The notes under the pieces were generated by a model. The model searched no databases. It had not been told where the DNA came from and worked only from the letters and a program-made list of their open reading frames with translations. Of a DNA stretch of 20,000 nucleotides, positions 1,014-20,000 are shown piece after piece (the stretch's first letter is position 1; the number at the start of each line of letters is the position of its first letter). The position numbers were made by a program, and so were the translations under genes. The DNA is from Lophium mytilinum (Eukaryota). The stretch covers positions 1,889,162 to 1,909,161 of the forward strand of contig MU004191.1 of NCBI GenBank assembly GCA_010093605.1. The letters run 5' to 3'.

Positions 1014-1084
1014 GCATTAAATAAAATATATAAAGTAAAGGGTAGAATATAGTTTATATAACGTTTATAGATAAAGTAATTAAT

Positions 1085-1119
1085 AGGGCTACCGTAGAAA
1101 GCCTTCCTGCTAGGGCTCT
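1085..1119. repeat. 35-bp palindrome copy 1 (possibly inside a 5' intron, ~1076-1146)
   Basis: agggctaccgtagaaag-c-cttcctgctagggctct. Confidence 0.85.
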
Positions 1120-1257
1120 TCCCTAGCAACCTTAACCGAGTAGCAGTATCTATAAGGGGTGTTAAAACGGGTTAGGCAGAGTAAGCCCTATAATAAGAAT
1201 ATTAACAAATCCTTATTTTTAACTAATTATACTCCCTAACTACTTTCTACTTTTTAG

Positions 1258-3180
1258 CTCTATATTCTAAACTATTATCCCCCTTACTACTATACCTAGT
1301 AGTTAGTATAGAACGCCCTTAAAAGTACTAGAATAAAGAAGAGTAAAAAGCAGCTAAATTATATTTAATAGTAGATTTAAACCAACGCAAGAGAGATAAA
1401 AAGAAGAGGGCTATAGACTAAATAGCTGCAGTAGAAGAGGCTAGTAAGCCTACTTCTACTTCTATTCTAGATCCGTTTCTAATTATCTTTAAAAACCCTA
1501 GAGGTCTTTCTAGTATAAACATTAGGGCCCCTTATCCTACCCACCCTGCGCCTACGCCCTTTTAACAACTAATTATACCTTAGAAGCCTTTAGAGAAAAC
1601 TATTATATAACTTATAATTAGTATATCTTTTATAATCTTCTAGTATTTATAGTTAGGTTCTAATAAACTTAAGTAGAACCCGTCTTAATAAAAGAATTAT
1701 TACCTTCTACCTCTACTTAATCTACGCAATATACTCCTCCGCAGCGGTCTACTTATAGTAGTACCCGTTCTACTATTTCTTCTCTATCTATCTAACCTAT
1801 ATAACCTACGTAATATACTCCTCTATAGTAGTCTACCTATAGTAGTATCTATTCTACCGCTCCTCCTCTATCTACTAAACCCACCTAATATTCTACTCTA
1901 GGGCGGGCTACTTATAGCAGTACTTATTCTCTCGCTTCTCTAACTTCTTAATCTACTTAACTAATATAACTTTCTTATATCTAGTAGTCTACTAGTAGTA
2001 GTACACACTCTAGTAAGTTAAAAGCGGCCTAATATATACCTAAAATTTAAAGTAATATAGAATTAATAGAAGCTATAGAGTAAAATTAGAGTAATAGTAG
2101 TAAGTATACTATTATATAGACTATTAAGGGAGCAGCAGTTAAAGAAAAAGAAGAAGCGGCTAAAGAAAGCGAAGTAAATAAAGAAGTAGCCTAAGTAGAT
2201 AAAGAAGTAGAAGAGGCAGTATTAGAGTTGCTATTACCTATATCTTCCGCGTTATCTTCTTATATACCTGCGTTACTACCACCTCTAAATACTAGAGAGG
2301 TATTACCCTCTCTATTACTACCTTCTAGTGTAGGGACACCTTAGTAAGCCGCAAATAATAATAATAGAGCTCCGGGCTAAGTTCTACCCGCTATACGCTA
2401 TCTCTATAAAGTGTTTCTTAAACCTATAGCTATACTATATATATATACAGGCGTATATACTATTCTTACCCTCTAGAATACTCTATAGATAGCTATAATA
2501 CTACACGCAAGTTTACGCGCTTAATAAACTATAGCAGCTCCTACTCCTATATAACTAGAACTAATAATATAACGCTAAATACTAGCCCTTATTACTATAT
2601 TACTACTTTATATACTTATGTAAATAACTAATAAAGAGATTATAGTAGAATTATTCTTAGCGCAATAAAATAAGGCCGTAGAAGTGCTCTCTAGAATAGA
2701 CGCTACGGAATAAATAGATAAGAAGGAAATGCTAGCTAATATAAGTTAGTTTATACAACTAGCGTATAATAATAGTTAGGTTTAGATAGAGTAGTACGCT
2801 GCCTTATTATCTCTCCGCCTAACGCTAGTAACTAAGGTTATAGAAGAGGAATTTACCTAATTTAAGAATAAGGTAGAAGCAGGTGCAGATATAGATAAGG
2901 TATTAAATAATAGAGTTAAAGAGGGTAGAGAAGGTATATATACGCAAGGATAGTAAGATACTATAGATAAATTACCGGGTTTACTTAATAAAGTTACGCT
3001 AGAGAATTAAGGCAGTAGGGTAGATAATATAGCCTTAAATAGTAAAGGCAATAGTAAGATTATAGATAAAGTTATAGATAAGATAGACCCTAATAGGTAA
3101 GTATTATAAGCCCTATAGTTTATATAAAGCTAATATACGTAGGTATAATAATCTATTAGTAAATACTCTATATATAGTAA
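1258..3180 (+). pseudogene. RIP'd gene A: S/T/P/Q-rich low-complexity region followed by charged/helical region, unknown function; boundaries approximate
   Basis: Codon-phased repeats at 1721-2011, an E/K/A-rich stretch at ~2120-2230, and a canonical short intron at 3097-3142 (gtaagt...gctaat...tag). Truncated by the gap at 3181. Confidence 0.5.
1721..2011 (+). repeat. Degenerate coding tandem repeat, about 4 units with spacings of 84, 75 and 81 bp
   Basis: Units read caatatactcctccgcagcggtctacttatagtagtac / taatatactcctctatagtagtctacctatagtagtat / taatattctactctagggcgggctacttatagcagtac / taactttcttatatctagtagtctactagtagtagtac. All periods are multiples of 3 (peptide ~TQYTPPQRSTYSST). Confidence 0.8.
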
Positions 3181-3190
3181 NNNNNNNNNN
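3181..3190. other. Assembly gap (10 N)
   Basis: Run of N. Confidence 1.
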
Positions 3191-6100
3191 TTAGAAGTCT
3201 AGTATACTTACTATATATCTTAACTCTTTCTATTTAGATAATATAGTAGCTAATATTATAATATAGCAAGTAACTATATAATAGTTCCTTAAAGCAGATC
3301 CCTTAGCTAAGTTACTAGCTTTCTTCTAGCTTAGAATCTTTCCTTCTAATAAGAGCCTATTACAGCTAATACAGCCTTCTATTTAATAAGCCAACTAGAG
3401 CTATTATAGAGAGAGGATAATCCTAACAACTTTAATAATATCCTATAGAAATTAATATTAAGCAGAGAAACTAGTAATATAGAAACTCTAAGGCTTAGTT
3501 TTATAAGGTCTAAAGCTAGCTTTATAGCGAATAAAGAGATTAAAATCCGGCAAGTATATAATATTAATAGCATTATTATTAGCATCTCTACTTTAGCGGC
3601 CTATAATTTATACTTCTTACTATTTCTATAACTATCCTTTCTCTAAAGTATTACTTAAAACTAATATATTATAATACGCGGCTATAAGCTCTATATAATA
3701 AAGCAGCTTTACATAGAGTATAGATATAAGTATTAATTTAAAACTTATATATTTTTCCCCTAGATATTAACACTAAATAAGTAGAAGGGTAGTACTTTGC
3801 ATCTACTAGATATAATATAAGCAGCTTAGCTTAATAATATTATCTTACCTATAGTAAAGTATACTCTAATATCTAATAAGTAGTAGTATATACTATACAG
3901 TTTTAATATTATATAGAGTAAAGCAAGCGTTAAGAAAGAAAAATATATAATATTATCTAGAGACTCTTATATTAATACTAAGTATATAATTCTATAGTAT
4001 TAACTCTAAGAATTCTAGAACTAAGTTCTTTATAATGTAGAAAACTTTATAGAAATAGATACTATACCTAAAGATTTATTTAAAGAAGTATTCCTAGTAG
4101 TCTTAGGTTATAATCTAAAAATAGTATATAAGTCCTTAAGTATAATTTAAAGTAGAAATTAGCTACTACGTACTTTAACTACTACTTTTAATAAAAACCT
4201 AATTAATATACTAGATAAGGGGATATAGGTTAACTATAGATATAAAGATATCCTAACTACTAATTAGCTAGATACCGGGGTTACCCTTCTACATAAAACT
4301 AGCTATAACAACTACTAGGCCACTTACTTCTATAATAGTGGAAAAGAAAAGATTTATATAATATTATACCCCTACTATCTTACCTAGGGCGCGTTATCTC
4401 TAATAGTAGAGCTCTAAGCAGGCAACTATAGCCGTATTAGTAGTATAGCATATAATAAAATCTATAATAGTAATAAGATTATACTTAAGTTACCTATTAA
4501 GAATATTACGCCCTTTTATAATACTTAACTAGAAGCTCTTGCGTTCTTAACTAAAATAATTAAGTAGTAGTTTAAAGCGGCAGGTAGCTCTAAAGGATTA
4601 TTAAAAAGAAAATAGCTTTAGAATAGTCTTACTACTATTCTCTAACGCCACTATACTATACTCTAGAGAGATAGATACTTATTCTATAGGGTTTAAACTA
4701 AGTTCTAAGTACTTCTTACTATACTTAAGCAACTTAAAGAAAGCGTAAGTCCTAAATTTACTATAAAGGATAGGCTAGATAATAGTAGTAAGCCTTATTA
4801 CCCCTACTAGGTTCTTTCTATAAAAGAAGTTAATACCTTTACTATTGTAAACCTTAATCGCTAGGTATTCCTTTTCCAGGTACTATCTCTTTAGATTACC
4901 CCCGGGCGTAATACTAGGCATGTAGCAATACTAGATAAATAGCTAGTAAATAGTTATTTAGCATTTCTTTATATCCGCCTTACATAAATTACTACTAGAT
5001 ATAGTAATTCTACTTAATTATCTATACTATAGAAAAAAGAGTAGATAAATTAAAAAGACCCCTAGAATCCTGTAATCTTATATAGCCTTAGGTTATTAGA
5101 CTTCCTTAAAAAGTATAGCATAGCTTAGCTAAAGTTAGAGTACTTAGATTAGATAATAACGCCCCTATAACTTAGTCCTTAAGGCGTTAATTAACTGCAA
5201 GCCGGCCTTAGAAATTAATTCTAAGCTATATTTACTAAAGCTTAGATCTAGGTATCTCTTACTAGGGAGAATATAGAGATGCGGTATCTATAGTATAGCA
5301 TTACAGCATAGTACACGCTAGCTATTTAACGTAAAAATAGAACTAAAGTATAAAAAGATTAGTAATTAGTACCGCTATAGATAGGTAAGGCAGCTGCGCT
5401 TATTATTAAGGCATACTATACTAATATATATAAGCTTCTAAGTAGATAATACATAGAAGAAGATAGAAATACTAAGATATAATAGAAGAGTAAAGAACTA
5501 CGCAACTAATTTCTTAAGAGTATTTTAAATAGATCTATAGTTGCGCTTTATCCTAATATACTTATAAAGCTATATAGAAAGTTAGAACTTATAGTAAGCT
5601 ACGCCTATATGCGGAATGTAGCTAGAAATAGTAATATAAATTATCTAAGGCACTTAACTAGACGCTAAATTAATTAAGTCTAGCCGCTATTTAATATTAC
5701 GGATCTAGCTGCAGAAACTTAAAAATAAAATAATAGTCCCTTCCGCATAAAATTGCAAAGATTAAATGCAATAATTAGAAACAAAGCGTTACTAAAAACG
5801 GTAGAATAATTTCTTAATAATTTATAAGTAAAAGCCGCCTTATTACTCTAGATTCTTCTAAGATACAATAATAATAAAATTTTAACTACGCGTTAAGCTA
5901 AATAAAACAACTCTAAAGATATATAAGATAATATTAGGGGAAGAGATATAATTATAAATATATAGTAGATCTATATGCAACTATTAAATAGCTACTACTA
6001 TAAGGTAGCCTAACTAAGCTAATATATTAAAGAATAGGCTTAAGGGGGGGTAGTTAACCTTAGCATAGACGTAGTTGCAAAGGAAGTATAGAATATAACC

Positions 6101-6480
6101 TAGGGAAGCCCAGGAAAGTTAAAGACAATAATAATAGAGGATAATATTATAGGCCCTAGAGGTTAAGTTAATCTAAAATATATCTAGCTTAGGTTTAAGC
6201 ACTATATACTAAATAGCCCAAGGGCTTATTTAGGCAGAATTCTAATAATTAAAGAATTCTAGAATTATTTAGCAATATAAAAGAAGCAAGAGAGGAATAT
6301 AAGTAGTTAGTTATTAGATAAAGAGTATAAGTATAAAGAGAGTTTAGGTAACTATAGCTTAGAAATAGAGGACTTAGAGGACTTAGGGTAAGAGGTCTAG
6401 AAGAATAAGGCTTAAGTAGAAGAGTTTTAAGAAGTATATAGATTTAAGCGTTAATAGGTAGACTAGTAGGGGCGGCGTTA
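3191..6480 (+). pseudogene. RIP'd gene B: large (~1,000 aa) fungal hypothetical protein with acidic C-terminal tail; ends approximate
   Basis: One frame (position mod 3 = 2) gives protein-like de-RIP motifs: YDIDS (3557-3571), WVDYGYED...VTLLHK (from 4226), GGMAYNKIY...PF...LEALAF (~4440-4490), YGVRTEFRV (from 4685) and GLGLLDFLEKYGMAWLK...LDW (from 5084). These resemble a repeat-associated fungal hypothetical family recalled from memory, with no named domain. Confidence 0.7.
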
Positions 6481-6533
6481 TAAAGAAGAATTATTAATAA
6501 GAGAGGTAGTAAAGTATTTAGTATAAGATATAA

Positions 6534-6568
6534 AGGGCGTTAGTAGAAAGGCTTCTAGCTAGGCTCTT
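6534..6568. repeat. 35-bp palindrome copy 2 (intergenic)
   Basis: agggcgttagtagaaag-g-cttctagctaggctctt. Confidence 0.85.
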
Positions 6569-6659
6569 ATATAGTACGCAAATACTTATCTAGTAGGTGT
6601 ATAGTAGTAATATATATAAGAAGAGAGGTAATAATAGGCGTACTTAATATAAGTAGTAA

Positions 6660-6694
6660 AGGGCCCTAGTAGAAAGGCTTTCTAGCAAGACCCT
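6660..6694. repeat. 35-bp palindrome copy 3 (intergenic)
   Basis: agggccctagtagaaag-g-ctttctagcaagaccct. Confidence 0.92.
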
Positions 6695-7294
6695 TATACT
6701 ATAGGTAAATAGTTATACAACAACGCGCAATATTCTATTAACCTATCTTAGCGCAGTACTGTATTACTAGAACTAGGCGATATATAGCGTAGTATTATAG
6801 ATTAACCGTAAACATTTATATATTAGCGAAATTAAGTAAAACGCTAATATATTTATACCTGTAATATTTTAACCTTATATAATATATAGCCATTATATTA
6901 ACCTTAAGAGTTAACTTAAGTAGTTTACTATTAAAGGCTTAGCGTCTTAGCAGCCGGCGGCTATTAGCCCGGCCGCCCATAAACTTATCCACCGCCTAGC
7001 AGCTTTAACTTTCTTACTTTTATACTAATCTCTCCTTCTATACTACCGCACCCCCATTACTTCTACTTATCTAGCTACCTGCGGAATAGTTGCGCGCTAG
7101 TTTCTTATTTACTAGATAATAGTTAGCAGCTTTCTAGCTATATTAGAGCCGCAATTAGCTAGTTTTAGGCGTTCTTTTAGCTAGCGGTTAAGCCTTTTAG
7201 TAAGTTTACTATCTAGCAGGTAAAATTAAGTTACGTTATAGCTAATTCTGCTAATAGGTTTATTCTATTGCAATTTCTCTAAGAGTAGAGTAAG

Positions 7295-7359
7295 GTAAGC
7301 GTATTATAAGAATTATTATAGAAAGGCTTCCTGCTAGAGCCCTTTACTAGTCTTAGTAG
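7295..7359 (+). other. Predicted intron containing palindrome copy 4 (7309-7343)
   Basis: gtaagc donor at 7295; agaattattatagaaag-g-cttcctgctagagccct; acceptor tag at 7356 or 7359. Confidence 0.6.
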
Positions 7360-7430
7360 ATTAGTCTACCTTAATTTTAAAGATGCGGCGGCAGGAAATA
7401 TTAAGAAAATAATAATACTAAAAATACCCA

Positions 7431-7526
7431 GTATAGTGCATAGGGTCTTAGTAGAAAGCCTTTCTACTAGGGCCCTTTACCTGCCTTCTTTCTTCTATTA
7501 TTTAAGATAAGCTAATATATTAATAG
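7431..7526 (+). other. Predicted intron containing palindrome copy 5 (7442-7476)
   Basis: gt donor at 7431; agggtcttagtagaaag-c-ctttctactagggccct; pyrimidine tract; branch gctaat at 7511; tag at 7524-7526. Confidence 0.65.
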
Positions 7527-8455
7527 GCTAGCTATAAATACCTTAAGCAACGGGGACCCTAGTAAGGTAGTAGTAAAGGTTGCATCCCTATATATATTAC
7601 CTATAACTAACCTAGTAGATAGCTATAAGAAATAATCTACTTCTTCTAAAGTACTAGAAGATTTAAATTCTACCTCTCTACTAGTTACTAAATTAGGGGT
7701 TAATGCCTATGTTAATTTAAAGCGCAATTAGCCGGCCACTGCAATAAATCTAGAGACGCTTGCATTAGTAAATAGCAAAGTAGTTTATCTAGATAGCGAT
7801 AACTATAGTAATAACTCTAATATCCCTAAGAACTCTAATAAAGAGTAAGAAAAGCTTTAAGCGCTAGTTACTAGCAGTAGGAAAGATAAAAAGTTAGAGA
7901 AGTTATAGGCCTTAGTAAATACGCTATATGCTAGTAGAATAAAGTTAGCTAAGCTTTATAGTTAAATAAAAGTAGAACTTAAAGTAATTCTAGCTAAGCC
8001 TAATTTCTAAGTAATTTAGAATAAGTATAAGGATAGGTATTTAGACCTAAAGCGCGCCGTATACAGTTAGAATTAAGGGGCTAGTTTTACTACTATTCTA
8101 AACGCTTTTAAGACTAGCGAGTTGCATAATCTATAGTAATATACTACTCCTTAGCCTAAGATAGATAACTATAAACCCGTAGATTAGGTAGCTTAATTTA
8201 TTAGTTAATGCTTTAATTACTACCAGAAGCGGTTTAGTGGGTTTTTGCACAACCGCGCTAATATTACTAATAATAAAGCGCTTAGAATCTTCTTTAAATT
8301 AAAGAAAAATATAGAATTTAAGAGTAGCCCGTCTTAAGCTAGTAGGACCGCCTATACTAAGAACTAAATTAAGATATAGAATGTTCTTTAAAAAATAAAG
8401 CTTAGTCTAGTACCGGCACCTAAGACCCCGGCCAAAACTATTACTTATAGTAGTA

Positions 8456-8490
8456 AGAATATTAATAGGAAGCCTTTCTATTAAGGCCCT
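8456..8490. repeat. 35-bp palindrome copy 6 (reads in-frame in the helicase ORF)
   Basis: agaatattaataggaag-c-ctttctattaaggccct; frame continuous across it (~IDGKPFHQGP). Confidence 0.8.
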
Positions 8491-9140
8491 TCTAGGCCTC
8501 CCTGTTAGCAGTCGCCCTCTTATTTTACTAAGAAGAAACTCGCGGCTATTAACATAGAGGTTAACGTAGACAACCCTATCTAGGAGTTATCTAAAGAGGA
8601 AATTACTATAAACCTAGTTAATAAGAAGAAAGGTAACGTTAATATTACTAGCGCTAAGTATATTACCGGCACTATAAAATAGAAGCTTAAGTTAGTAATT
8701 ATGCATGCTAAGCGCACTAGAGTAATAATTAACTAGAACTCGTTAAAGTTTTAATATAACGCATATTGGGTAATTAGATAGATAGTAGGAGATTTTATAT
8801 ATACTATTAAATAGCACCTAAATATGCGCGCTGTAGATTTAAATAAGAATAAGTACGCTAATCTAGATAGTATTAAATATGCCTAAGATATAGAGGCTAA
8901 TATAAGGGCTACCGCTATTAATATAAAGAATATTATCCTCTTTACTATACTAACCGCAGTAGATCTTACAACGTAGAGTACACTCCGCCTTCTAATAACT
9001 AATAAAGCCTATTAGCTAGATAACCTTAAAGAAGTAATAAAGGCCCTACGCATTTATAACTATTGGAAACCCCGCCTTATTATAATAAATAGTAATATTT
9101 ACTTAAGGTAGTAGTAGATTACCGGGGCTTACTATATATA

Positions 9141-9175
9141 CTATATTATATAGAAAGGCTTTCTTAGTAGGGCTT
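9141..9175. repeat. Degenerate palindrome copy 7 (exonic, overlapping the start of SNF2 motif I)
   Basis: tagaaag-g-ctttcttagtagggct, encoding ~QKGFLGGA. Confidence 0.6.
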
Positions 9176-9253
9176 TAATTACAGATAAGGTTAGTATTAG
9201 AAAGATATTTTTAATAGCTACCCTTATTAGATATATAAGCAATTTCTCTTTAA

Positions 9254-9288
9254 AGGGTATTAATAGAAAGCCTTTCTACTACCCCCCT
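9254..9288. repeat. 35-bp palindrome copy 8 (exonic)
   Basis: agggtattaatagaaag-c-ctttctactacccccct; in-frame ~GIDGKPFCHPP. Confidence 0.8.
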
Positions 9289-10052
9289 AATAGTTTCTCT
9301 TAGCATCTACTAATTTAATTATAGCTTATTACTAAGCGCTAGCGCAAAGTTATAGATAAGAAAGACCCCGGGCTAGTAAAGCCCTTTTTTTTTCTTATGC
9401 CTCCCGTTTTAGTATACTAAATAGTAAATAAACTTATAAAGTTTAGTTCTAAACTTAAGCTCTATATCTATTTATTAAAGGGCTAAGTTACTTTCTATAG
9501 CGCTATATTTCTACATAATACCTTAACTAGAAACTATTCCTTATTTAATACTAAAAATAAGGTAAATGCTAAGAGCATTGTAATCGCCAGCTATTAGGTA
9601 ATAGCTAGTCGGCACGGTCCCTAGCCCGCATTAAAGTAGTATAGCAATAATAATCTTACTAAGCTAAAGAACTAGGTTAAATATCGCCTAAGCTCTACCT
9701 AGCCCGGTTTCTTAAGTAGCTATTTTAACGTCTAATTTATAGATAAGTGCTAGCTTATTAAAAGTAACTAAGTAAACCTCCACCTAACCGCGTTATAGCT
9801 TTACTTAGACTTTACTATACTCTATAGTAGGACCCTACTATATATAGGTATTACTAATATGCCTACTTATATATCTTTTATAGAACTAAGAGATAAGTAT
9901 TTATAATTCTGCACATACCGCTTAAAACCTAGTAAAGCTAAGTTTATTCCAGGTACTAATAATCCGTTTAAGCTTCCTAATAACTATTTAGGTGTAATTT
10001 TCTAGTATACACGCAAGGCTTTTAAAAATTTTATTCTACCTTTATTTAACCT

Positions 10053-10146
10053 GTAAGTTATTATATAAAGGGCCCTAGTAAAAAGGCTTCTAGCTAGGGC
10101 CCTTATCTCTTCTCTTATTTACTTTAATTTTTTAATATTTCTCTAG
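10053..10146 (+). other. Intron containing palindrome copy 9 (10069-10103)
   Basis: gtaagt donor; agggccctagtaaaaag-g-cttctagctagggccct; polypyrimidine tract and ctctag acceptor; removal restores the helicase frame. Confidence 0.85.
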
Positions 10147-11542
10147 GATTATATAGGGGCTTTATTTACGCTTAATTTTTAGTAAGTATATAATTACTCG
10201 CTTATACCCTTCTATATACCTAAATAATTCTACTAATCCTGCCACCTAAATTAGAGGATTACTTCCGCGGTTAGTTACGCGAGTAATTAAGCTATAGCCT
10301 ATAAAACTAGGCTATATTATCTATACTAATAAATTACTAAGCTACCTTAAGTTATTAATAGTTTCTACTAAGAACTGTGTAGGCTAGCGCACCTATATAT
10401 TTAATATATGCTCTATATATGCTCTTAACCTTATAAGTACTGCGCTATTTTTAGTCTACTCTAAGCGCGCTATAATAGCATATCCGTAAGAGAAGGTCTT
10501 AGATTTAAAGGGTAATAAGATTAAGAACGGCCCAAAAATCATCCCTCTTAAGAATAATAGCGGTTACTAGTTAAAGGAAATAGACGTTTTGCAAGGCATA
10601 ATAAAGTAAATTACCCGGAATAAGAACGTCTAAACTAACCCTAATTAGAAAGACTTTAAAGCAAAGTCCGCACCCTTTTATTATATTATCGCTCTTTTTA
10701 TCCGTAATGCCCCTAAAGTAGCTACACTACTATACTATTTAGCTAATAACGTTATTAAGCGTATAGAGAAGGTTATTATTTAGACTAACTACCTAAATAA
10801 GTAAATAATTCTTGCTAAGATTATTAACTATTATAAAATAGATGCTTATATACTAGCCTTTAATCTCTCTACTACTAACCGGGATAACTTTATCTTAGTG
10901 TTTAACAACCCCGACTCTAAAGTAAAGATTCTTATTACTAGTTACTAGGCTAATAGAGCTAGGCTTAATCTATAGTCTACTTATTATAATATATATCTTT
11001 TTAACCCTGCAGGCTCTATTTAGATTAAGAAGCAGGTAATAGCGCGTTTCTATAGAATTAGCTAGAAGTTTACTATTATAGTAACCGCGTTCTTTATCTA
11101 GGACACATTTAATGCCTTTACTCTCTCGCGCTAGGTGTAGATAGCGCTTTCCGGTCTTACTACTGCGTTAAACACTAACTAGATTAAGGTAGAGGGGACC
11201 TCTAAGGAAAAGCTAACCCTAGATAGCTAGTATGCGTAGATAACCTATAATAATAAGAGTATTGCACCCCGCCTTATTATAGGCAAAATAGATATTTTAA
11301 ATATGCCGGTAGAATTATATATTAAGCGCTTTAACTCCCTATAAGATATTCTTATATTTCTAATAACCCTTATGCAAGGTAATATAACTTTTTAGTCTAG
11401 TAGGTTTAGTAATAAGTTCTAAGAAAAATAAGCGTATAAATTTACTAAATTAGAATTAGAAGAAGAGTAGAAGAAGGGTGTAAATAGAGCGCCTAAGAAA
11501 CCGCGTATTAATAAGCTAGGTTTAAGGCTTAAGTATTATCCT

Positions 11543-11637
11543 GTAAGTAGTAAGTTCGCCCTTATAGGTTCTAGCGGGAAGGCTTTCTACTAGGGCCCTA
11601 CTTACCTTTTTATACTTTGCTAATCCGTGTTTTATAG
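11543..11637 (+). other. Predicted intron containing palindrome copy 10 (11565-11599)
   Basis: gtaagt at 11543 (alternative 11550); taggttctagcgggaag-g-ctttctactagggccct; branch gctaat; tag at 11635-11637. Confidence 0.75.
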
Positions 11638-11820
11638 TAAAAGCTACCCTAAAGCTAAAGCTAAAGACACTAGAGTAATAAAATAGTAAAGCTTTAAAGT
11701 AGAAGCGCAAAGCTAGTACTATACTAGCGGCTGCTATTAAGAAGTATAAGCCTAACCCTAAGTCTACTATTATAGTTAAAGACTTAGATTCTACTAAATC
11801 TAATATGCCTACCCCTATAA

Positions 11821-11855
11821 AGAGCACTACTAGAAAGGCTTATAGCCCTTTTATC
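11821..11855. repeat. Degenerate palindrome copy 11 (in predicted exon)
   Basis: agagcactactagaaag-g-cttatagccct; left arm fair, right arm shortened. Confidence 0.5.
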
Positions 11856-12006
11856 TATTAATATAGGCCGGAGCGTAACCCTTTATATTAAGTCCCCGCT
11901 GTTTTTAGTAATATAGACAGCAATAACTCTTTTAGTAGGCTAAATAGTAATAACTCTAAAGGTAAAAAGTATAAGAATAATACTTTATTCCTTGCAAAGT
12001 ATATAG

Positions 12007-12101
12007 GTAAGAATTTATTCTAGGGCCTTTTTAGAAAGCCTTTCTACTAGGGCCCTTTAGCATCGCCTATTATACTGCTTAAGTGCTAACTATTATAATA
12101 G
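12007..12101 (+). other. Predicted intron containing palindrome copy 12 (12022-12056)
   Basis: gtaaga donor; agggcctttttagaaag-c-ctttctactagggccct; branch gctaac at 12085; tag acceptor at 12101. Confidence 0.8.
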
Positions 12102-12914
12102 CTTCTACTTCCGCCCATTAACCTACTTTAACTCTACCTTCTAGCCCTCTTAGTACCTTTAATAGACGCCTTATTAGGACCTCTTCTATAGACTCTATTC
12201 TATTACCTAATATATAGAAGAAGAGGTAGCGTAGAGTTTCTACTATCTCCTTATAGAATTCTATAGATAATCTAGTTTTTTATTTACTACTAAAAGCTAA
12301 CATTAATATAGATAATAACTAGACTAAGAGTAATAAGTAGAATAAGAAGAATATTAAAACCCCCGACGTTAATATAGAGAACGTCCCGTCTAAGACTAAT
12401 AAGTAAAATGGGGGGTATCTTAATAATTACCCGGATTTTACTACTACGCTATCTAAAGTTGCCTTTAAGCGTAATAGCAACTACAGTAGTAACTTAAATA
12501 ACCCGCCGGAATTTATAGAAGAGGCCTTGTAGCTAACCTTAAAAACTATATCCTCTAGTAATACTAATAAGGGTTAGAAGCGCTAAGGCGCAAAAAAGAA
12601 GCCTACTATAAAGAAGGATAAAGTAGCTAAGAAAGACCCTATATCTAAATTCCTTATATATTGTCCGTACAAGTATATAATAAAGAAAGAGATTACTAAG
12701 TAGCGCCCTTAGCGCGAAAGAAAGGCTACTAAGAAGAAAGCTACTGCGTAGAAGTCTATAAACTCTACTAGACTAAAAATAGACCTACGCAGGCGGAAGA
12801 ATAATCCTAATATTAGCTAACCGCCCGCGGTATTAGGTATAGATACTAACCCTAATAGTAAAGAGAATAGTAGTAAATTAGAGGGGACTAGTATAGTGCT
12901 GGAGAAGTCTAATA

Positions 12915-13027
12915 GTAAGGTATAACTAGTAGGGTTTTTATAGAAAGGCTTTCTATAGGGGCCCTTACCCTACTTTTTAAATTTAGTTTAGTATCTCTTA
13001 ATATCTTTTTTTTTTTCTTTCTAACAG
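12915..13027 (+). other. Possible intron or 3' region containing palindrome copy 13 (12931-12965)
   Basis: gtaagg at 12915; agggtttttatagaaag-g-ctttctataggggccct; T-tract followed by ctaacag ending at 13027. Confidence 0.6.
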
Positions 13028-13329
13028 TTCTAATTAGGACTACTTTTCTTGCTATTAGTTTGCACCTACTTACTTAGTACTGCTAACTTTTTACTATCCT
13101 AATTTCTTACTTACGTTCTATCCTCTACCCCCTAATAGTTAGTACTACTCCGCAGTAGTAGTATACTTTATACCCTTAAAATCTCCTAGTTTATATTTAG
13201 CCTCTAGATAGCGGCTTACTTAACTATAGAATATAGCGTAATATTTACTACTATAACTATGCCTTGCGTATCTTATGCATAATATAATATTTATTTTATT
13301 TATCTATATTATAGAGGGCGGTCTCATCC

Positions 13330-14640
13330 ACCGTAGTTTATGTAGTTAGAAAGGGTAATTACATTCTAATGCTGCTCTATTATATCTATACTATTAGCAT
13401 GTACTTTCTATCTTTTTTATAGTAAAGAATCTGCTATTATATACCCTGTAATTTAACCCTTTTTACTAATATTAGTTATATAGCTAGGCTAAGTTCTCTC
13501 TATAGACTCTATCTATTAATACACTATATATAACTTTATTCTACCTATAGTTCCCTAAAGCGTATATTATTATATAATGCCTAAACTAACTAGAAGAAGA
13601 ATTATTTATATATATTATTATTAAGTCTTTAGCGTACTAGGCGGCGGAAGGTAATTTAGGTATTACAGTTATACTTTCTAGTTTATTAGCAATATATTTA
13701 GACCTGCTTATTATTAGTAAGAATAGTAATTCTTAAAGGGTTATAGTCTTACCGTTTATTACTTTTAATATAACTTTCCTTCTTCTTATAGTTATAAATA
13801 GTCTCTATATTATAAATAGAACTGCTCTTTTATTCTAGTATTTTCCTTTACTTCTATTCTTATAGCCATCTTAATAAGCGCTTTAGCCGTATAAGCTTCC
13901 TTCTTATAATAGAATCTAGAGTAGTATTTATAACCTCGCGCCTAGATAGAGTATTAGGCGTAGTAAGAGAAGAAGCTAACTACTCTATTAGGATATATAT
14001 ATTGGGTAGACGTAGATATATCTACCCCTGCTAAATATTATCCTTAGCGTTTAGAGTTACTATGCTGCTGCGCGTTAACCTTAGTATACCGGGCTATATT
14101 TTATATACTTTAGCCTAGTTTAGAGTTGCAGCCGTCTCTATATTAGGTTAGGCCGCTTCTTATCTTATAAATATCCACCAGAACGCTCTAGAAAGAATAT
14201 ATATAGTATACTAATTAAAACTTACATATAGTATTATACGTAGGCTGCTACTATACTATAAGGGGTAGGTAGTAGTTAGAAAAAGGTTTAATGCGCTAGT
14301 TTCTATTAATCTTAGTATATTACGTGCTAACCTCTTATATTATATCTATACTTATAATTAACCTTTAGAGGTTAACTTTATATACTATATATAAATAGCA
14401 GCTCTAAGAGTTTTATTTTATTACTATACTATACGTATATTTTATCTTAGGCGGAACTAGTAGGTTCCTATAATATATAGTTTATATAACTATACCCTGC
14501 GTTGCTTTAGCGCCCGCCTAATTTACTCTTCCTCTCTTTTCTTACTTTTTTAGCTTATTTCTCTCTACACTATAGCTGCAGGTAAACTAACAGCTAGAAC
14601 TAGCATAGGAGAGACTTTTAATTATATTTAAGGCACTTTA
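13330..14640 (-). pseudogene. Possible RIP'd minus-strand gene, unknown product; boundaries approximate
   Basis: The reverse complement of ~14545-14225 gives a plausible de-RIP frame (~EEREEEQIRRALEQRRVRLHELH...) followed by a gtaagt donor-like site. No domain was recognised. Confidence 0.3.
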
Positions 14641-14889
14641 GAGAAATAGTTTAACGGTATATAAAGTTTTAAAGCTAGTAGGCTATGGGAATACCTATAT
14701 AACTAACTTAGAAGAGTAGTATACTAAGAATAGCACCGCCATAATAGGTATACTAATAGGCTCGGGTACTATTACTTAGAACCCTCTTCTTAACCCTAAT
14801 ATACCTAGTAATACTACAGATCTTACCGCATAAAATGCTAGAGAGGAGTTCTTATTATTTATTTCTAAAATAACTTCTAAGCTAGCTAA

Positions 14890-15367
14890 TATAGACTAAC
14901 CCTATACAACTAAACCGCTTACCGCGGAGGATACTACTAACCCTACCTACATTTATGCCTAGAGAGAAGCACTTCTTGCAACTATCTAGAATTAAAATAG
15001 AGGTTCCCTTTTTAGTAATAGCCTAGGCATGCCTACTAATACTACTCTTAATATATAGCCTACTATAACTAAGTCTTAAACTCTCTATAACTATGCTAAC
15101 CCTCTATTCTAAGCTACTAGAGATAGCGCCCTACCTTCTAAGTCTAATATTAATATTAAGCCTAAACTAGCTAATAAAGTTAATATAAAGATTAAGCCTA
15201 GTATTAAGATTAAGCCCGGCCTTATAAGCAGCCTGGATACTATAACTTTTTTAAGGATAATTTTAAGGATAAGAAGCTTCTACGCTTATAGATTAATATA
15301 GAAGAGAAGAAGGTAAGGGCTATATAAATAAGGTTTAAGGCTATAGCTAGAGAGCGGAAGCGGTAGG
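14890..15367 (+). pseudogene. RIP'd low-complexity ORF fragment with (V/I)KIEP-like repeats and an acidic/coiled-coil segment
   Basis: aagattaagcctagtattaagattaagcccggc (KIEPGIKIEPG after de-RIP), then ~FEDDFEDEELLRLRIDAEEKKARAM in a shifted frame. Confidence 0.4.
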
Positions 15368-15562
15368 GCCTAATCTACTTCTAAATTTAAACCTTAAATA
15401 GAAGTAGTAGCGCTTTAACCTATTTCTATCTCTACGCGCTCATTAGTAAACACCTAACTCTTTATTTAGCGCTGCTAGGCCCTTACTATTCCCTAACCTA
15501 TCTTCTCCTTTAATAGTAACGCGTCCCTACTTTTCTAGAACTATACTCTAGCCCTCTACGCT
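15368..15562 (+). pseudogene. Truncated paralogous fragment of the dsRBD gene (first half of dsRBD1); second copy at 17653-17847
   Basis: Aligns to 16488-16650 but carries an extra in-frame 36 nt after gcctaatctact. Confidence 0.85.
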
Positions 15563-15801
15563 ATCTATATGGAAATCGTCTAATAGGCTTTACTCTTTTA
15601 CTTTACCTTACTTTTATTTCCTTCTTTAATAGCTTTATCTCTACTCTTCTACTATTAGTCTTATCTTTTTCTACTATAGCGGAGCCTCTAGACCTAACCC
15701 CTAGTAATAGTACTAGTTTACCCTTTACTACTATAGTAAAACCTAAAGATTTATCTTCTATTACTACTACTACCGCGTTGCTAACTTGCAAGCTCTAAAA
15801 T

Positions 15802-15894
15802 TATAGATATTGCAGGAAGAAAGCTACTCTAAGGTATAGTTACTATGCTAGCATTATCTACTACAATATAGATTATTAAAAGGCTAACTAGAAA
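15802..15894 (+). pseudogene. RIP'd MYND-type zinc finger fragment; second copy at 18087-18179
   Basis: De-RIP reading CGYCRKKATLRCxxCASIVYCNADCQKADWK. Copy 1 retains tgc at Cys2 and copy 2 retains tgc at Cys4. The final HxxxC is not seen. Confidence 0.75.
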
Positions 15895-16289
15895 TTATCT
15901 AATACACCGCCTTCTTACATAAAGGTTATTACACCATAATAAGACTTCTATACTTTAGCTTAAATTTACTAATAGATAGTAAAGAGCGTAAAGTTTAGTA
16001 GATTATCTAAGGGGTAGAAATTAAAATAGGCTCTAGCTCTATTATATAACTATAAGCTATAATATACTTTACCTCTTATAAACTTAGCCCGCTATATATA
16101 AATATAGAGTCTCTCCTGCCTAAGCGCTAAAGAATAACTTCTAGTAGAGTAGCTGCAGCTACCCTAGCTTATATAGATTAAACTAGCACTCTACCTTAGC
16201 CTTCTTAGGCTAGCCTTTAACCTTATATATATACTAGCATAGGTAGTAATAATTATTCTTATTCTTCCTTTATACTAAGCTTAATTACT

Positions 16290-17458
16290 ACGCCGCTTTC
16301 TAGCTTTAAGAAGAAAAGAAAGATAGAGGTTGTAGCTCCTCTTAGTAGTTAGAACTCTACCCTACTATTAATAGATTAGATATATAGAGGCTCTATTCTA
16401 GGTACCCTAAGCATGCTATAAAACCTTCTTAGTATTAATAAGTTTAAGAAGTAGTATAAAGCCGCCGTTACCGCCGCTAGAGCCTAAGCCTAATCTACTC
16501 TCTAACCTATTCCTATCTCTATATGCTTATTAGTAAATACCTAGCTCTTTATCTAGCGCTGCTAGGCCCTTACTATCCCCTAACCTATCTTCTTATTTAA
16601 TAGCAACACCTTTCTACTCTTCTAGAACTATACTCTAACCCTCTATACTGCCGGCTTTCCCTACTCTCTTACTACTACTAGCCCCTTTACCTTTAAGAAA
16701 GAAGCTAAAGAAGCCGCCTCTACTCTTAGCCTTACCCTCCTCTTCTCTCTTAAAGCCTTAGGTATAGTCTCTACCCCTAGTAAAACTAAAAAATGTACTC
16801 TAACTCTAACTTTTACTACTACTACCCCTAAGAAACCCTAGAAAAACTTTACTAGTATTCTTATAGAATTCTACTAAGCCTCTAAAATTTCTATTCTAAC
16901 CTTTACTAAGTTTAAAACCGGCACCTACTTCTCTACTAAGCTATCGCTAGCCTTATACCGCCCGGAGGACGCCCTCTTTAGTAGCCGCGCTATACTCTAC
17001 CTATTAAAGAAAGCGGCTTATATAGCTATAGTAAGAGAGGTAGTACTCTAGCTATATATAGGGATAGCTACCCGCTATATATAAGCCCGTGTTTAGAAAG
17101 AAGTAGTAGAAGATAGTAGAGGGTTCTAAAAACGCTGCAGTGTAGCTGCCGGGTAGTATAGTAGCGCAGGTGCTAGCACTAGCAAGCAAGCTAGGGCTAC
17201 TATAGCTGGAGTATTAGTAGGCGGCGCTAAGTACGCTAGTGCCGGGGCTATCTATAGTAAGTAGTTTATTCCCGGGGAGTAGAGTAGGTAGAGAGAATAG
17301 AGTAGTAGCAACGGCAAGGTATATAGTTAGAAAGAAGGCGGTAAGGAAAAAGTATGCGCAGTTAATAGGAATAGAGTTAGAAGAAGTATTAGAGAGGAGG
17401 AAGGGGGTGTTAGAAAAGGTATTAGAGAAGGGGAAAAGAGAGGTAGAGATAAGGGAGG
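16290..17458 (+). pseudogene. RIP'd gene for a protein with three double-stranded RNA-binding domains (copy 1); start approximate
   Basis: dsRBD1: TRSSVNTQLFIQRCQALAIPQPVFSF...GPFASKKEAKEAASALGL (~16520-16735). dsRBD2: ENFTGILMEFCQ...PTF...FGGR...SKKAA..A.AREAVLWL (~16840-17055). dsRBD3 after a +1 frame change: AQVLALASKLGL.QPEY...ATARHVVGKKAAREECAQL (~17160-17400). Confidence 0.85.
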
Positions 17459-17468
17459 NNNNNNNNNN
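17459..17468. other. Assembly gap (10 N) exactly at the duplication junction
   Basis: Run of N. Confidence 1.
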
Positions 17469-19743: not shown

Positions 19744-19768
19744 GAAATAAGAACTATTATTCTTATTA
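18575..19768 (+). pseudogene. RIP'd triple-dsRBD gene (copy 2); ends approximate
   Basis: Same motifs as copy 1, e.g. tctaagaaagaagctaaagaagccgcc (SKKEAKEAA) at ~18977, with an independent set of RIP mutations. Confidence 0.85.
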
Positions 19769-19886
19769 GGAGTATAGAGAGATATATAATAGAAACTTAT
19801 TTATACTTACTTAATTTAGGTTATAGTAGGGGAAGTATATTAAAAGTATAGTAAGTAGAAAGTATAATTACTTCCGTAGTAATATA

Positions 19887-19921
19887 AGAGTTACTATAGA
19901 AAGGCTTTCTATAAAGGCTCT
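19887..19921. repeat. 35-bp palindrome copy 14
   Basis: agagttactatagaaag-g-ctttctataaaggctct. Confidence 0.85.
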
Positions 19922-19979
19922 ATAAAAAATATTAGTATAATATATATATATAAAAAAGATATATAAATTTATAATAAAA

Positions 19980-20000
19980 AGGATCCCTATAGAAAGCCTT
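19980..20000. repeat. Palindrome copy 15 (cut by window end)
   Basis: aggatccctatagaaag-c-ctt. Confidence 0.75.

Follow-up and report, generated by a model that had tools for sequence, protein, structure and literature searches.

The block at positions 3191–12965 of the 20-kb window (the whole stretch of DNA analysed here) is probably dead, RIP-mutated, repeat-type DNA, a passively carried copy that holds one SNF2 gene with introner-like hairpin introns. Nothing in the 20-kb window demonstrates that it is a transposon.

Results

The RIP index TA/AT was 1.58–2.57 and (CA+TG)/(AC+GT) was 0.17–0.39 in every one of the twenty 1-kb bins of the window, while CA and TG dinucleotides stood at 0.25 and 0.20 of expectation across the 20 kb. 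Within 3191–12965 the composite RIP index was 1.19–1.94 in each bin. The uniform RIP that the earlier note had ascribed to the block was therefore borne out, with 20/20 bins in the RIP range, and the signature extended beyond the block over the full 20 kb. When the SNF2 copy was compared with a profile of its relatives, 34 of the 71 strongly conserved columns were identical, 23 were explained only by C-to-T/G-to-A changes and one only by the reverse direction, leaving 13 other changes; across 839 weaker columns, 136 differences were C-to-T/G-to-A-only versus 24 that were reverse-only. Consensus residues R, Q or W lay under 21 of the 55 aligned in-frame stops. Two adjacent tandem copies (15184–17458 and 17469–19743) differed at 200 of 2,275 sites, 197 of these by transitions, with no indels. 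The window is a mosaic of distinct RIP-mutated repeats, and such repeats flank 3191–12965. The block starts at 3191 simply because a 10-N assembly gap ends there.

The presence of a SNF2 gene in the block, proposed by the earlier note, was confirmed on the + strand by profile, HMMER, tblastn and PDB searches. A family profile built from 14 full-length relatives aligned colinearly over 7984–11212, in frame +1 across 7984–10041 (profile positions 51–672, E 1.1e-26) and in frame +2 across 10151–11212 (profile positions 679–1004, E 1e-38). HMMER against 1.84 billion proteins returned 114 matches (best 1.1e-34), all 98 tblastn pieces fell on the + strand and in frames 1 or 2 only, and the PDB search retrieved a Rad54-like chain (E 6.7e-4). 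The gene model (Table 1) comprises 1,642 codons in at least 8 exons and contains 89 in-frame stops, spread evenly over exons of at least 40 codons (4.1–6.2 per 100 codons); the exons downstream of 11549, which have no homologue, were modelled from frame and stop density alone. Motif I is coded right after the intron at 9108–9167, where the copy reads ITDKVSIRKI and the profile LADdvGLGKT. By eye, the inter-lobe stretch (exon 10148–11542) contained just scattered cysteines. Because the copy follows the family profile colinearly, with breaks at intron-like segments only, it was probably still intact at the onset of RIP; C-to-T and G-to-A changes then killed the gene. The earlier division of the block into genes A, B and SNF2 did not survive this analysis: 7383–9100 makes up the SNF2 gene's own N-terminal half, and what was called 'large unknown gene B' belongs either to that gene or to a weak coding remnant.

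To the left, 3191–6472 is just weakly coding-like and is probably a remnant degraded further than the SNF2 gene. Frame 2 purine/pyrimidine codon periodicity was 0.12–0.24 in 3241–5040 and at most 0.12 beyond, and frame +2 of 3191–4800 had 7.5–8.9 stops per 100 codons. Over the whole of 3191–6472 there were 9.7 (+2) and 9.0 (-2) stops per 100 codons, versus 4–6 in the SNF2 exons; given the similarity of the two strands, the co-orientation claimed for the block holds for the SNF2 gene on the + strand but is not established here. Pfam and PDB searches of both strands and a word search found no relatives of this region.

By sequence comparison, the SNF2 protein is a member of an uncharacterised Pezizomycotina family without RING, which combines a family-specific N-terminal domain with a SNF2 ATPase core. 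Its members are labelled 'hypothetical' or 'putative DNA repair helicase rad5,16' ('rad5,16-like') in databases. In Pfam scans, 17 of 18 relatives carried SNF2-rel_dom and/or Helicase_C, and RING or HIRAN was found in none of the 18, nor in any of the 15 best family matches. The profile consensus of the relatives retains the ATPase motifs GLGKT, DEAH, TATP and QAIGR...GQ, from which we infer that intact relatives are ATP-driven double-strand DNA translocases. Relatives occur in Microsporum, Flavoplaca, Emmonsiellopsis, Aspergillus spp., Gyalolechia, Emydomyces, Talaromyces and Macrophomina. The family is patchy and very diverse (114 clusters at 50% identity), and many of its members are fragments or sit on very short contigs (e.g. 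of 646 nt in Aspergillus alliaceus and 693–2,424 nt in Microsporum audouinii). The named Aspergillus members each have a single occurrence in their genome, on a large contig, as expected of an ordinary accessory gene.

A 41-nt palindrome with the consensus TAAAGGGCCCTAGTAGAAAG-G/C-CTTTCTACTAGGGCCCTTTA recurs in the window. Searching with TAGAAAGSCTTTCTA at up to 2 mismatches gave 10 matches versus 0.43 expected, a count reached in 0/200 shuffles, and looser criteria gave 14 copies (~41 nt) in the 20 kb. Eleven of these lie within the 6.4 kb of 6531–12968 and three outside 3191–12965; the same loose search found none in 3191–6530, and the palindrome was also absent from an unrelated, equally TA-rich RIP-mutated repeat of 6.9 kb (12969–19883). 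A hand-computed binomial for this clustering was ~5e-4. Of the 13 complete copies, 8 have G and 5 have C as the centre base, departures from the consensus were not mostly transitions (69, versus 65 transversions), and present-day hairpins were modest (z at or below -1.7 in 5 of 13 folds).

All seven palindrome-bearing segments within the SNF2 gene have GT...AG ends, 60–99 nt apart, whose removal restores the frame that stop density, R/Y periodicity and the profile had separately indicated. The intron at 10053–10146 is the top GT/AG pair at its site (35.2 bits; 121 pairs over four sites) and is bracketed by profile positions 672 and 679, with homologue P0008 aligning on either side of it while its own sequence is ungapped. 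The junction of intron 4 belongs to the best-scoring of 297 junction combinations tried, and of the tandem GTAAGT motifs at 11543 and 11550 only the second restores the frame. The intron at 8453–8532 fits only with frame +2 just upstream, which implies an undetected indel or short intron in about 8300–8450. The segment at 7295–7382 is probably a 5'UTR intron abutting the ATG. The introns have only the palindrome in common, the tails between it and the 3' splice site being dissimilar by eye. Metagenome homologue reading frames start near the site of the intron at 9257–9355, so this position may be old, which fits either insertion into existing introns or intron creation. These features suggest that the palindrome forms a hairpin at the core of introns of spliceosomal type, as predicted from their GT...AG ends, and is not a transposon end; an introner-like family probably invaded, or gave rise to, almost all introns of the SNF2 gene and its neighbours. 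Thus the palindrome does recur, as the earlier note had it, in 14 copies, but a role as an element boundary is not upheld, the hairpin being inside intron-like segments.

The window held no second copy of 3191–12965, and the earlier note's statement that the gene set was multicopy is an inference. Of the 56 inverted pairs, the 25 longest included none that flanked the block as termini or TIRs, palindrome copies excepted. No mobilisation gene was seen in the 20 kb by domain scans, which are insensitive on RIP-mutated DNA: in a positive control, Pfam scans of X-read frames missed the SNF2 and Helicase_C domains that this gene is known to have. The earlier statement that no classical transposase is recognisable stands, yet little can be read from the lack of transposase or captain motifs, since the same scans missed a known SNF2 gene.

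Table 1 Features of the window, with tentative exons joined by in-phase GT...AG junctions
Feature	Position	Centre	Strand	Details
Palindrome copy	1082..1122		.	Outside 3191-12965
Weakly coding-like RIP-degraded region (earlier gene A or B)	3191..6472		.	Signal best in 3191-5040
Intron-like GT...AG segment with palindrome	6514..6593	6551	+	GTATTT...TATCTAG; -20.2 kcal/mol, z -1.83
Intron-like GT...AG segment with palindrome	6640..6704	6677	+	Fold z -0.37
Intron-like segment with palindrome	7295..7382	7326	+	GTAAGC...TTTAAAG, then ATG at 7383
RIP-inactivated RING-less Rad5/16-like SNF2 ATPase gene	7383..12919		+	Profile, HMMER, tblastn, stop density
Tentative exons of SNF2 gene	7383-7430, 7507-8452, 8533-9107, 9168-9256		+	
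Tentative exons, continued	9356-10052, 10147-11549, 11638-12006, 12102-12919		+	
Palindromic intron 1, 76 nt	7431..7506	7459	+	GTATAG...TTTAAG; frame +3 to +1; 16-bp stem, z -2.03
Palindromic intron 2, 80 nt	8453..8532	8473	+	GTAAGA...ACTAAG
Intron 3, 60 nt	9108..9167	9158	+	Palindrome core only; 3' splice site within right arm
Palindromic intron 4, 99 nt	9257..9355	9271	+	GTATTA...TTATAG; in phase
Palindromic intron 5, 94 nt	10053..10146	10086	+	GTAAGT...CTCTAG; between ATPase lobes; z -2.53
Palindromic intron 6, 88 nt	11550..11637	11582	+	GTAAGT...TTATAG; frame +2 to +3
Palindromic intron 7, 95 nt	12007..12101	12039	+	GTAAGA...CTAAC...TAATAG; frame +3 to +2; z -1.70
Intron-like segment with palindrome, at right border of 3191-12965	12920..12986	12948	+	GTATAA...ATTTAG; 16-bp stem, z -1.17
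Palindrome copy	19884..19924	19904	.	Fold z -2.65 for 19862-19931
Palindrome copy, cut by window end	19975..20000	~19995	.	Outside 3191-12965

Discussion

The block would most likely be one copy of a repeat unit with several genes, of the X3X3R8 kind, carried passively by segmental duplication or as cargo of a larger unit, and not moved by proteins encoded within it. It is unlikely that the block is the core of a large, autonomous DNA transposon of an unclassified type, with 3191–6472 encoding a novel transposase and SNF2 serving as an accessory motor as in AcademH-like elements. Although heavy RIP over ~10 kb implies earlier duplication, the family is patchy and diverse with many fragments or very short contigs, and available descriptions offer precedents both in the P. 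nodorum 26-kb repeat, with such helicases and nine gene-bearing copies, and in helicase-encoding fungal DNA transposons (AcademH), the inverted pairs and the lack of a second copy in the window argue against it. Moreover, 3191–6472 is barely coding-like and matches nothing, the helicase reported for AcademH is of the DEAD plus Helicase_C type and not SNF2-type, and in several Aspergillus genomes the named members of the family appear to be single-copy. Tentatively, the block might instead be a passenger, either a segmentally duplicated set of host genes or a piece of some larger carrier, for instance a Starship with its captain outside the window. The mosaic of different RIP-mutated repeats, the endogenous-cluster reading of X3X3R8 in the account of Hane & Oliver (PMC3017866) and, as weak evidence, 20 kb of DNA with no visible mobilisation gene are consistent with this; however, no carrier is evident in the window, as judged by scans that failed their positive control.

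RIP can leak into adjacent unique DNA, and RIP-mutated repeats do flank the block, so that its genes could be single-copy host genes damaged from next door. This is very improbable, because leakage is usually ascribed a reach of a few kb and the ~10 kb here is uniformly extreme. As for the palindromes, it is rather doubtful that they are a minimal MITE inserted into pre-existing introns or dead TA-rich DNA and not introners. The occurrence of both centre-base forms, the restriction of shared sequence to the palindrome and the possible antiquity of one intron site would all suit a MITE; against this, the palindrome is present in 7/7 introns modelled within the SNF2 gene, it is missing from the adjacent TA-rich repeat and from 3191–6530, and frames are restored by the GT...AG ends.

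If the introner-like reading is correct, these introns resemble the symmetrical or hairpin multi-copy introns on record in fungi, the ILEs of Capnodiales and the 'sister' introns of Hypoxylaceae (PMC3609843, PMC8469720). Those are likewise multi-copy introns of spliceosomal type with common sequence, have internal symmetry or a stable hairpin, and occur at sites without an intron in homologues. Here, by contrast, only the 41-nt palindrome is common, and it does not span the intron but sits ~30 nt away from the 5' splice site, and all copies known from the 20-kb window are in one RIP-mutated gene block.

The SNF2 protein resembles Rad5/Rad16/HLTF-type ATPases in the 'rad5,16' name of its family members, and the next profile matches beyond the family were RING-bearing CHR28/HLTF-like proteins (~130 bits, a lead from a word-preselected search). 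It differs from them in that the family has no RING/HIRAN and scores drop from at least 325 to 131 bits outside it. A Starship would account for several genes standing together with no transposase of their own, but neither a DUF3435 captain, by insensitive scans, nor boundaries were seen in the window. AcademH elements are comparable in that they are described as large fungal DNA elements, with TSDs of 9–10 bp, that encode a helicase and a large protein (Kojima 2020), whereas the helicase domain here is SNF2-rel_dom.

The closest precedent, compared by description, is X3X3R8 of Parastagonospora (Stagonospora) nodorum, a 26-kb repeat that encodes Rad5/SNF2-like helicases and a Rad6-like enzyme alongside unknown ORFs, present in nine gene-bearing copies and interpreted as an endogenous gene cluster (Hane & Oliver 2010, PMC3017866); the Rad5/SNF2 precedent that the earlier note gave for P. 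nodorum X3 was thus correct. Neither a Rad6/UBC gene nor a tandem second helicase was found in the 20-kb window, and P. nodorum proteins were absent from the 30 looked-up of the 114 SNF2 matches. Both are RIP-affected and multi-kb, the present block as a probable repeat, and in both, as far as the published description goes, Rad5/SNF2-like helicases accompany uncharacterised ORFs and no transposase is recognised, and one X3 unit, at about one third of 26 kb, compares with roughly 10 kb here (PMC3017866).

An SNF2 gene inactivated by RIP

Stops were read as X in searches with RIP-mutated frames. Read in this way, the frame +2 exon at 10148–11542 had a PDB match to a Rad54-like chain (E 6.7e-4) and weak ones to several Chd1 chains, and a HMMER search of 1.84 billion representatives returned 114 matches at E ≤0.001, 18 of them at ≤1e-10 (best 1.1e-34). 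When 125 proteins were compared with the window by tblastn, all 98 aligned pieces fell on the + strand, in frame +1 (8887–10143) or frame +2 (10157–11515). A family profile, built from 14 members of at least 880 residues, aligned through its positions 51–672 with 7984–10041 in frame +1 (E 1.1e-26) and, colinear with this match, through positions 679–1004 with 10151–11212 in frame +2 (E 1e-38). The relatives and the profile together place the N-lobe and Helicase_C in one colinear reading, in agreement with the earlier note, which had recognised an SNF2 gene here. Membership of SNF2 rests on relatives and profile because Pfam gave nothing on the RIP-mutated reading itself: a scan of the + strand of 9301–13000 (X-read) yielded no match at E ≤0.01 and missed the SNF2 and Helicase_C domains of the known gene. 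The PDB sequence search returned nothing for the SNF2 N-lobe or the N-terminus of the window copy, and a word-indexed protein search with the SNF2 exon returned no match. As the profile matches begin at 7984, the region upstream of the ATPase core, with the conserved N-terminal block of the family, belongs to the same gene; if the "gene B" previously set apart from SNF2 is this upstream stretch, the two are a single gene.

The window is AT-rich (GC 0.21–0.40) and carries a RIP signature in all 20 of its 1-kb bins, with TA/AT ratios of 1.58–2.57 and (CA+TG)/(AC+GT) ratios of 0.17–0.39. Window-wide, CA and TG stand at 0.25 and 0.20 of expectation, respectively, and only four ORFs of at least 100 codons were found in the six frames. 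Runs of N mark assembly gaps at 742–1013, 3181–3190 and 17459–17468, and the left border formerly given to the block, 3191, is the first base past the second of these. Two tandem copies of 2,275 nt (15184–17458 and 17469–19743) match over their full length once C=T and G=A are merged; in the four-letter alphabet they are free of indels and disagree at 200 of 2,275 sites, of which 197 are transitions. If the assembly join across the 10-N gap is genuine, this is RIP between duplicates in textbook form.

Within the SNF2 reading, the 71 strongly conserved profile columns comprised 34 identical residues, 23 changes in the RIP direction only (C-to-T/G-to-A), one in the reverse direction only and 13 others, and the 839 weaker columns held 136 RIP-direction versus 24 reverse changes. 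Of 55 aligned in-frame stops, 21 lay on R, Q or W consensus residues. The decay of the gene is RIP-directional. The excess of TpA and depletion of CpA/TpG in every bin, together with this directional change in both classes of column, bear out the earlier description of the DNA as RIP-mutated, and these data demonstrate the death by RIP of an intact SNF2 gene with predicted introns, from an uncharacterised family.

A diverse family of RING-less SNF2 proteins

Pfam scans of 18 relatives found SNF2-rel_dom in 15, Helicase_C in 15 and at least one of these in 17; RING and HIRAN (PF08797) were found in none of the 18. The members are 30–55% identical to one another and form one diverse family, with named representatives in Microsporum, Flavoplaca, Emmonsiellopsis, Gyalolechia, Emydomyces, Talaromyces, Macrophomina and several Aspergillus species, under the database labels "hypothetical protein", "P-loop NTPase" and "putative DNA repair helicase rad5,16". 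In the profile search, 15 family matches scored 325–762 bits and carried PF00176, PF00271 or PF04851 only. Next below them, at ~130 bits, came RING-bearing CHR28/HLTF-like proteins, a ranking that is just a lead because the search candidates had been preselected by shared words. Rad5 and Rad16 have a RING between the ATPase lobes, whereas neither the 18 relatives nor the top 15 profile matches have one; likewise, Rad5 and HLTF have an N-terminal HIRAN, in contrast to the relatives scanned here, which lack a Pfam HIRAN. Because the RING was absent, the family was filed as an SNF2 ATPase related to the Rad5/16 group, and not as a member of it.

Other searches returned generic similarity. A full-length member matched generic remodellers only in the PDB (best DDM1, 1.4e-17), four relatives showed generic SNF2 similarity only, far under family cut-offs, with PADLOC and NCBIfam, and the relative P0117 met generic SNF2 clusters only in the ESM Atlas. 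Two metagenome locus scans found no relative. The protein of the intact relatives is probably a DNA translocase. Four members, P0118, P0121, P0122 (Microsporum audouinii) and P0004 (Aspergillus alliaceus), are partial and lie on contigs of 646–2,424 nt, which hints that the SNF2 gene sits in hard-to-assemble repeated DNA of other fungi too. Taken together, the family is diverse, patchy across Pezizomycotina, mislabelled "rad5,16" though RING-less, and recurrent in repeat contexts.

Palindromes lie within predicted introns

The core of the recurrent palindrome, TAGAAAGSCTTTCTA, is present in 10 copies at ≤2 mismatches versus 0.43 expected, and none of 200 shuffles reached 10; looser criteria gave 14 copies in the window. 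Across the 13 complete copies, the consensus spans 41 nt and is self-complementary at 38 of 41 positions, its centre base being G in eight copies and C in five. Eleven copies lie in 6531–12968 and three outside the span first assigned to the block, with no copy in 3191–6530 or in 12969–19883. Mutated as they stand, the best copies form stems of 12–16 bp, and of 13 folds computed on the RIP-degraded sequence, five had z ≤-1.7. Rfam has no family for the palindrome segments. The proposal that the copies differ by RIP alone was rejected, with 69 transitions versus 65 transversions among them. The copies at 6551 and 10086 have a one-base deletion of the right arm in common (GGCTTCTAGCTAGG), which suggests that the palindrome may form sub-families and may have been copied between introns.

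Every in-gene palindrome lies within a segment of 60–99 nt that starts with GTAAGT, GTAAGA, GTATAG, GTATTA or GTAGTA and ends with YAG. Removal of seven such segments produces the frame changes (+3, +1, ..., +2, +3, +2) that were separately indicated by stop density, purine/pyrimidine periodicity and the profile, and leaves 1,642 codons with 89 stops, the exons being even at 4.1–6.2 stops per 100 codons.

Predicted introns and other GT...AG segments that contain the palindrome
Feature	Position	Strand	Remarks
Predicted intron with palindrome	7431–7506	+	GT...AG, in SNF2 gene
Predicted intron with palindrome	8453–8532	+	GT...AG; fits only with one more frame shift in ~8300–8450
Predicted intron with palindrome	9108–9167	+	GT...AG, in SNF2 gene
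Predicted intron with palindrome	9257–9355	+	GT...AG, in SNF2 gene
Predicted intron with palindrome	10053–10146	+	Best-scoring GT/AG pair of the site (121 pairs tried, four sites)
Predicted intron with palindrome	11550–11637	+	GT...AG, in SNF2 gene
Predicted intron with palindrome	12007–12101	+	GT...AG, in SNF2 gene
Palindromic GT...AG segment	6514–6593		Upstream of SNF2 gene
Palindromic GT...AG segment	6640–6704		Upstream of SNF2 gene
Palindromic GT...AG segment	7295–7382		Stops right before ATG at 7383
Palindromic GT...AG segment	12920–12986		
Palindromic GT...AG segment	~19862–19933		

The predicted intron at 10053–10146 falls between the adjacent profile positions 672 and 679. The homologue P0008 spans this site, with its residues 22–194 and 203–530 on either side and its own sequence ungapped; metagenome proteins such as P0008 are probably unspliced ORF calls. 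For the predicted introns at 9108 and 9257, profile scoring did not single out a junction, at 77.1 for the unspliced reading versus 73.6 for the best spliced one. What the in-gene segments and at least four of their neighbours have in common is the palindrome and no other sequence. The palindrome had been described as a signal that flanks or punctuates the genes; its copies mark no ends, and those in the gene lie inside predicted introns. As a transposon TIR it was rejected, because the copies sit within in-phase GT...AG segments. Judged by their sequence, the palindromic segments are probably introner-like introns.

A short GC-rich island (6936–7000; GCCGGCGGC...GGCCGCCC) separates palindrome pairs ahead of the SNF2 start; it is by eye rich in RIP-escaped C/G and may be old promoter DNA.

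The left third of the block and the flanks

In 3191–6472, codon-like purine/pyrimidine periodicity in frame 2, by a measure blind to strand, was 0.12–0.24 over 3241–5040 and ≤0.12 beyond. Frame +2 held 7.5–8.9 stops per 100 codons in 3191–4800, and the whole of 3191–6472 held 9.7 (+2) versus 9.0 (-2), clearly worse than the SNF2 exons. Neither strand of 3191–7000 (X-read) gave a Pfam match at E ≤1, the PDB search with both strands of 3191–6472 found no relative (one chance match, E 0.58), and a word-indexed protein search with the same stretch found no match. A second SNF2 paralogue here was also considered and rejected, the family profile having no match in the stretch at E ≤100. A "large gene" in this stretch gains little support, and 3191–6472 is best called a coding remnant, more degraded than the SNF2 gene.

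The flanks hold further remnants and repeats. The strongest purine/pyrimidine codon periodicity of the window (0.25–0.33, frame 2) is at 14640–15400, a coding remnant in the right flank with no Pfam or PDB match in the frames tried. Frame -3 of 2100–3150 has 6–9 stops per 450 nt versus 12–26 in frame +1, with periodicity of 0.18–0.22; it has no Pfam match, and a coding remnant on the minus strand may lie here, to the left of the assembly gap. Each of the 2,275-nt tandem copies contains a 153-nt unit that recurs at 1,087-nt spacing, and both show strong codon-like periodicity and no homologue. An 84-nt tandem repeat (1718–1878; 1.9 copies, with a weaker third copy to 1955) and repeats at ~211–221-nt spacing near the window start (202–738) are both RIP-like in composition.

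How the block may have multiplied

The feature is real and is here partly re-interpreted, as two things of known kind: a helicase-bearing repeat degraded by RIP, and introner-like introns with a hairpin. No second copy of 3191–12965 was found within the 20-kb window; we infer that the block was repeated. That single-copy genes were instead hit by RIP leakage is scarcely plausible. It is quite possible that the block was a passive duplication or cargo, and unlikely that it was an autonomous unclassified element. Pfam detected neither a transposase nor a DUF3435 captain, the tyrosine recombinase carried at one end of Starships, in any frame scanned. This silence has little weight, given that SNF2 and Helicase_C, both demonstrably present, escaped the same scan. 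Eight flank frames gave a single chance match in Pfam (Ribonuclease_P, E 0.27), and PDB searches of flank frames gave none for 15900–17458 and one chance match for 14561–15420 (E 2.7). No TIRs with a TSD bounding the block were found: among the 25 longest of 56 inverted pairs, the border pairs were palindrome copies only. The true ends of the unit may lie outside the window.

A more specific proposal would make the block one copy of an X3-like, unclassified multi-gene repeat or mobile unit of fungi with its own RING-less SNF2 translocase, and also the home or even the source of a palindromic introner family; we regard this as very unlikely. We know of no mechanism as yet for the multiplication of fungal introners; if the proteins of the element act on the hairpin, it would be a candidate autonomous partner for that process.

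Comparison with known systems

The Parastagonospora nodorum repeat X3X3R8 is 26 kb long and consists of two X3 units, one of them diverged, and an R8 in reverse orientation (Hane & Oliver 2010, PMC3017866). According to the available text of that paper, its authors read the original content as genes for three helicases and a Rad6-like ubiquitin-conjugating enzyme plus two unknown genes, gave gene annotations for nine copies, and interpreted the repeat as an endogenous gene cluster (PMC3017866). The helicase-bearing X3 repeat named in the earlier note is thereby confirmed (Hane & Oliver 2010, PMC3017866). As described there, it has only the annotation "Rad5/SNF2-like" in common with the block, and the two are likened by description. 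In the literature searched, X3X3R8 was named in PMC3017866 alone, and the same paper alone surfaced for RIP-affected repeat families with an SNF2 helicase; a tie between the block and this old, unclassified repeat is possible. In a search of the Starship and SNF2 literature, the passages of one paper held no description of an SNF2-encoding fungal element. AcademH transposons also encode a helicase, which citing papers, in the excerpts available, report as DEAD plus Helicase_C; the helicase of the block is SNF2-type. Further marks of AcademH are an Academ DDE transposase and a TSD of 9–10 bp.

For the predicted introns, the nearest counterparts are fungal introner-like elements (PMC3609843) and the sister introns of Hypoxylaceae (PMC8469720), both described in the accessible text of these papers as spliceosomal introns that occur in many copies and form a hairpin or have internal symmetry. 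Introner-like elements are marked by near-identity among several introns, a stable predicted fold, positions that homologues lack and a spread over many unrelated genes. The segments here are alike in the palindrome only. With the same hairpin in all seven modelled introns of one gene, the block offers a compact natural case on the origin of fungal introner-like introns.
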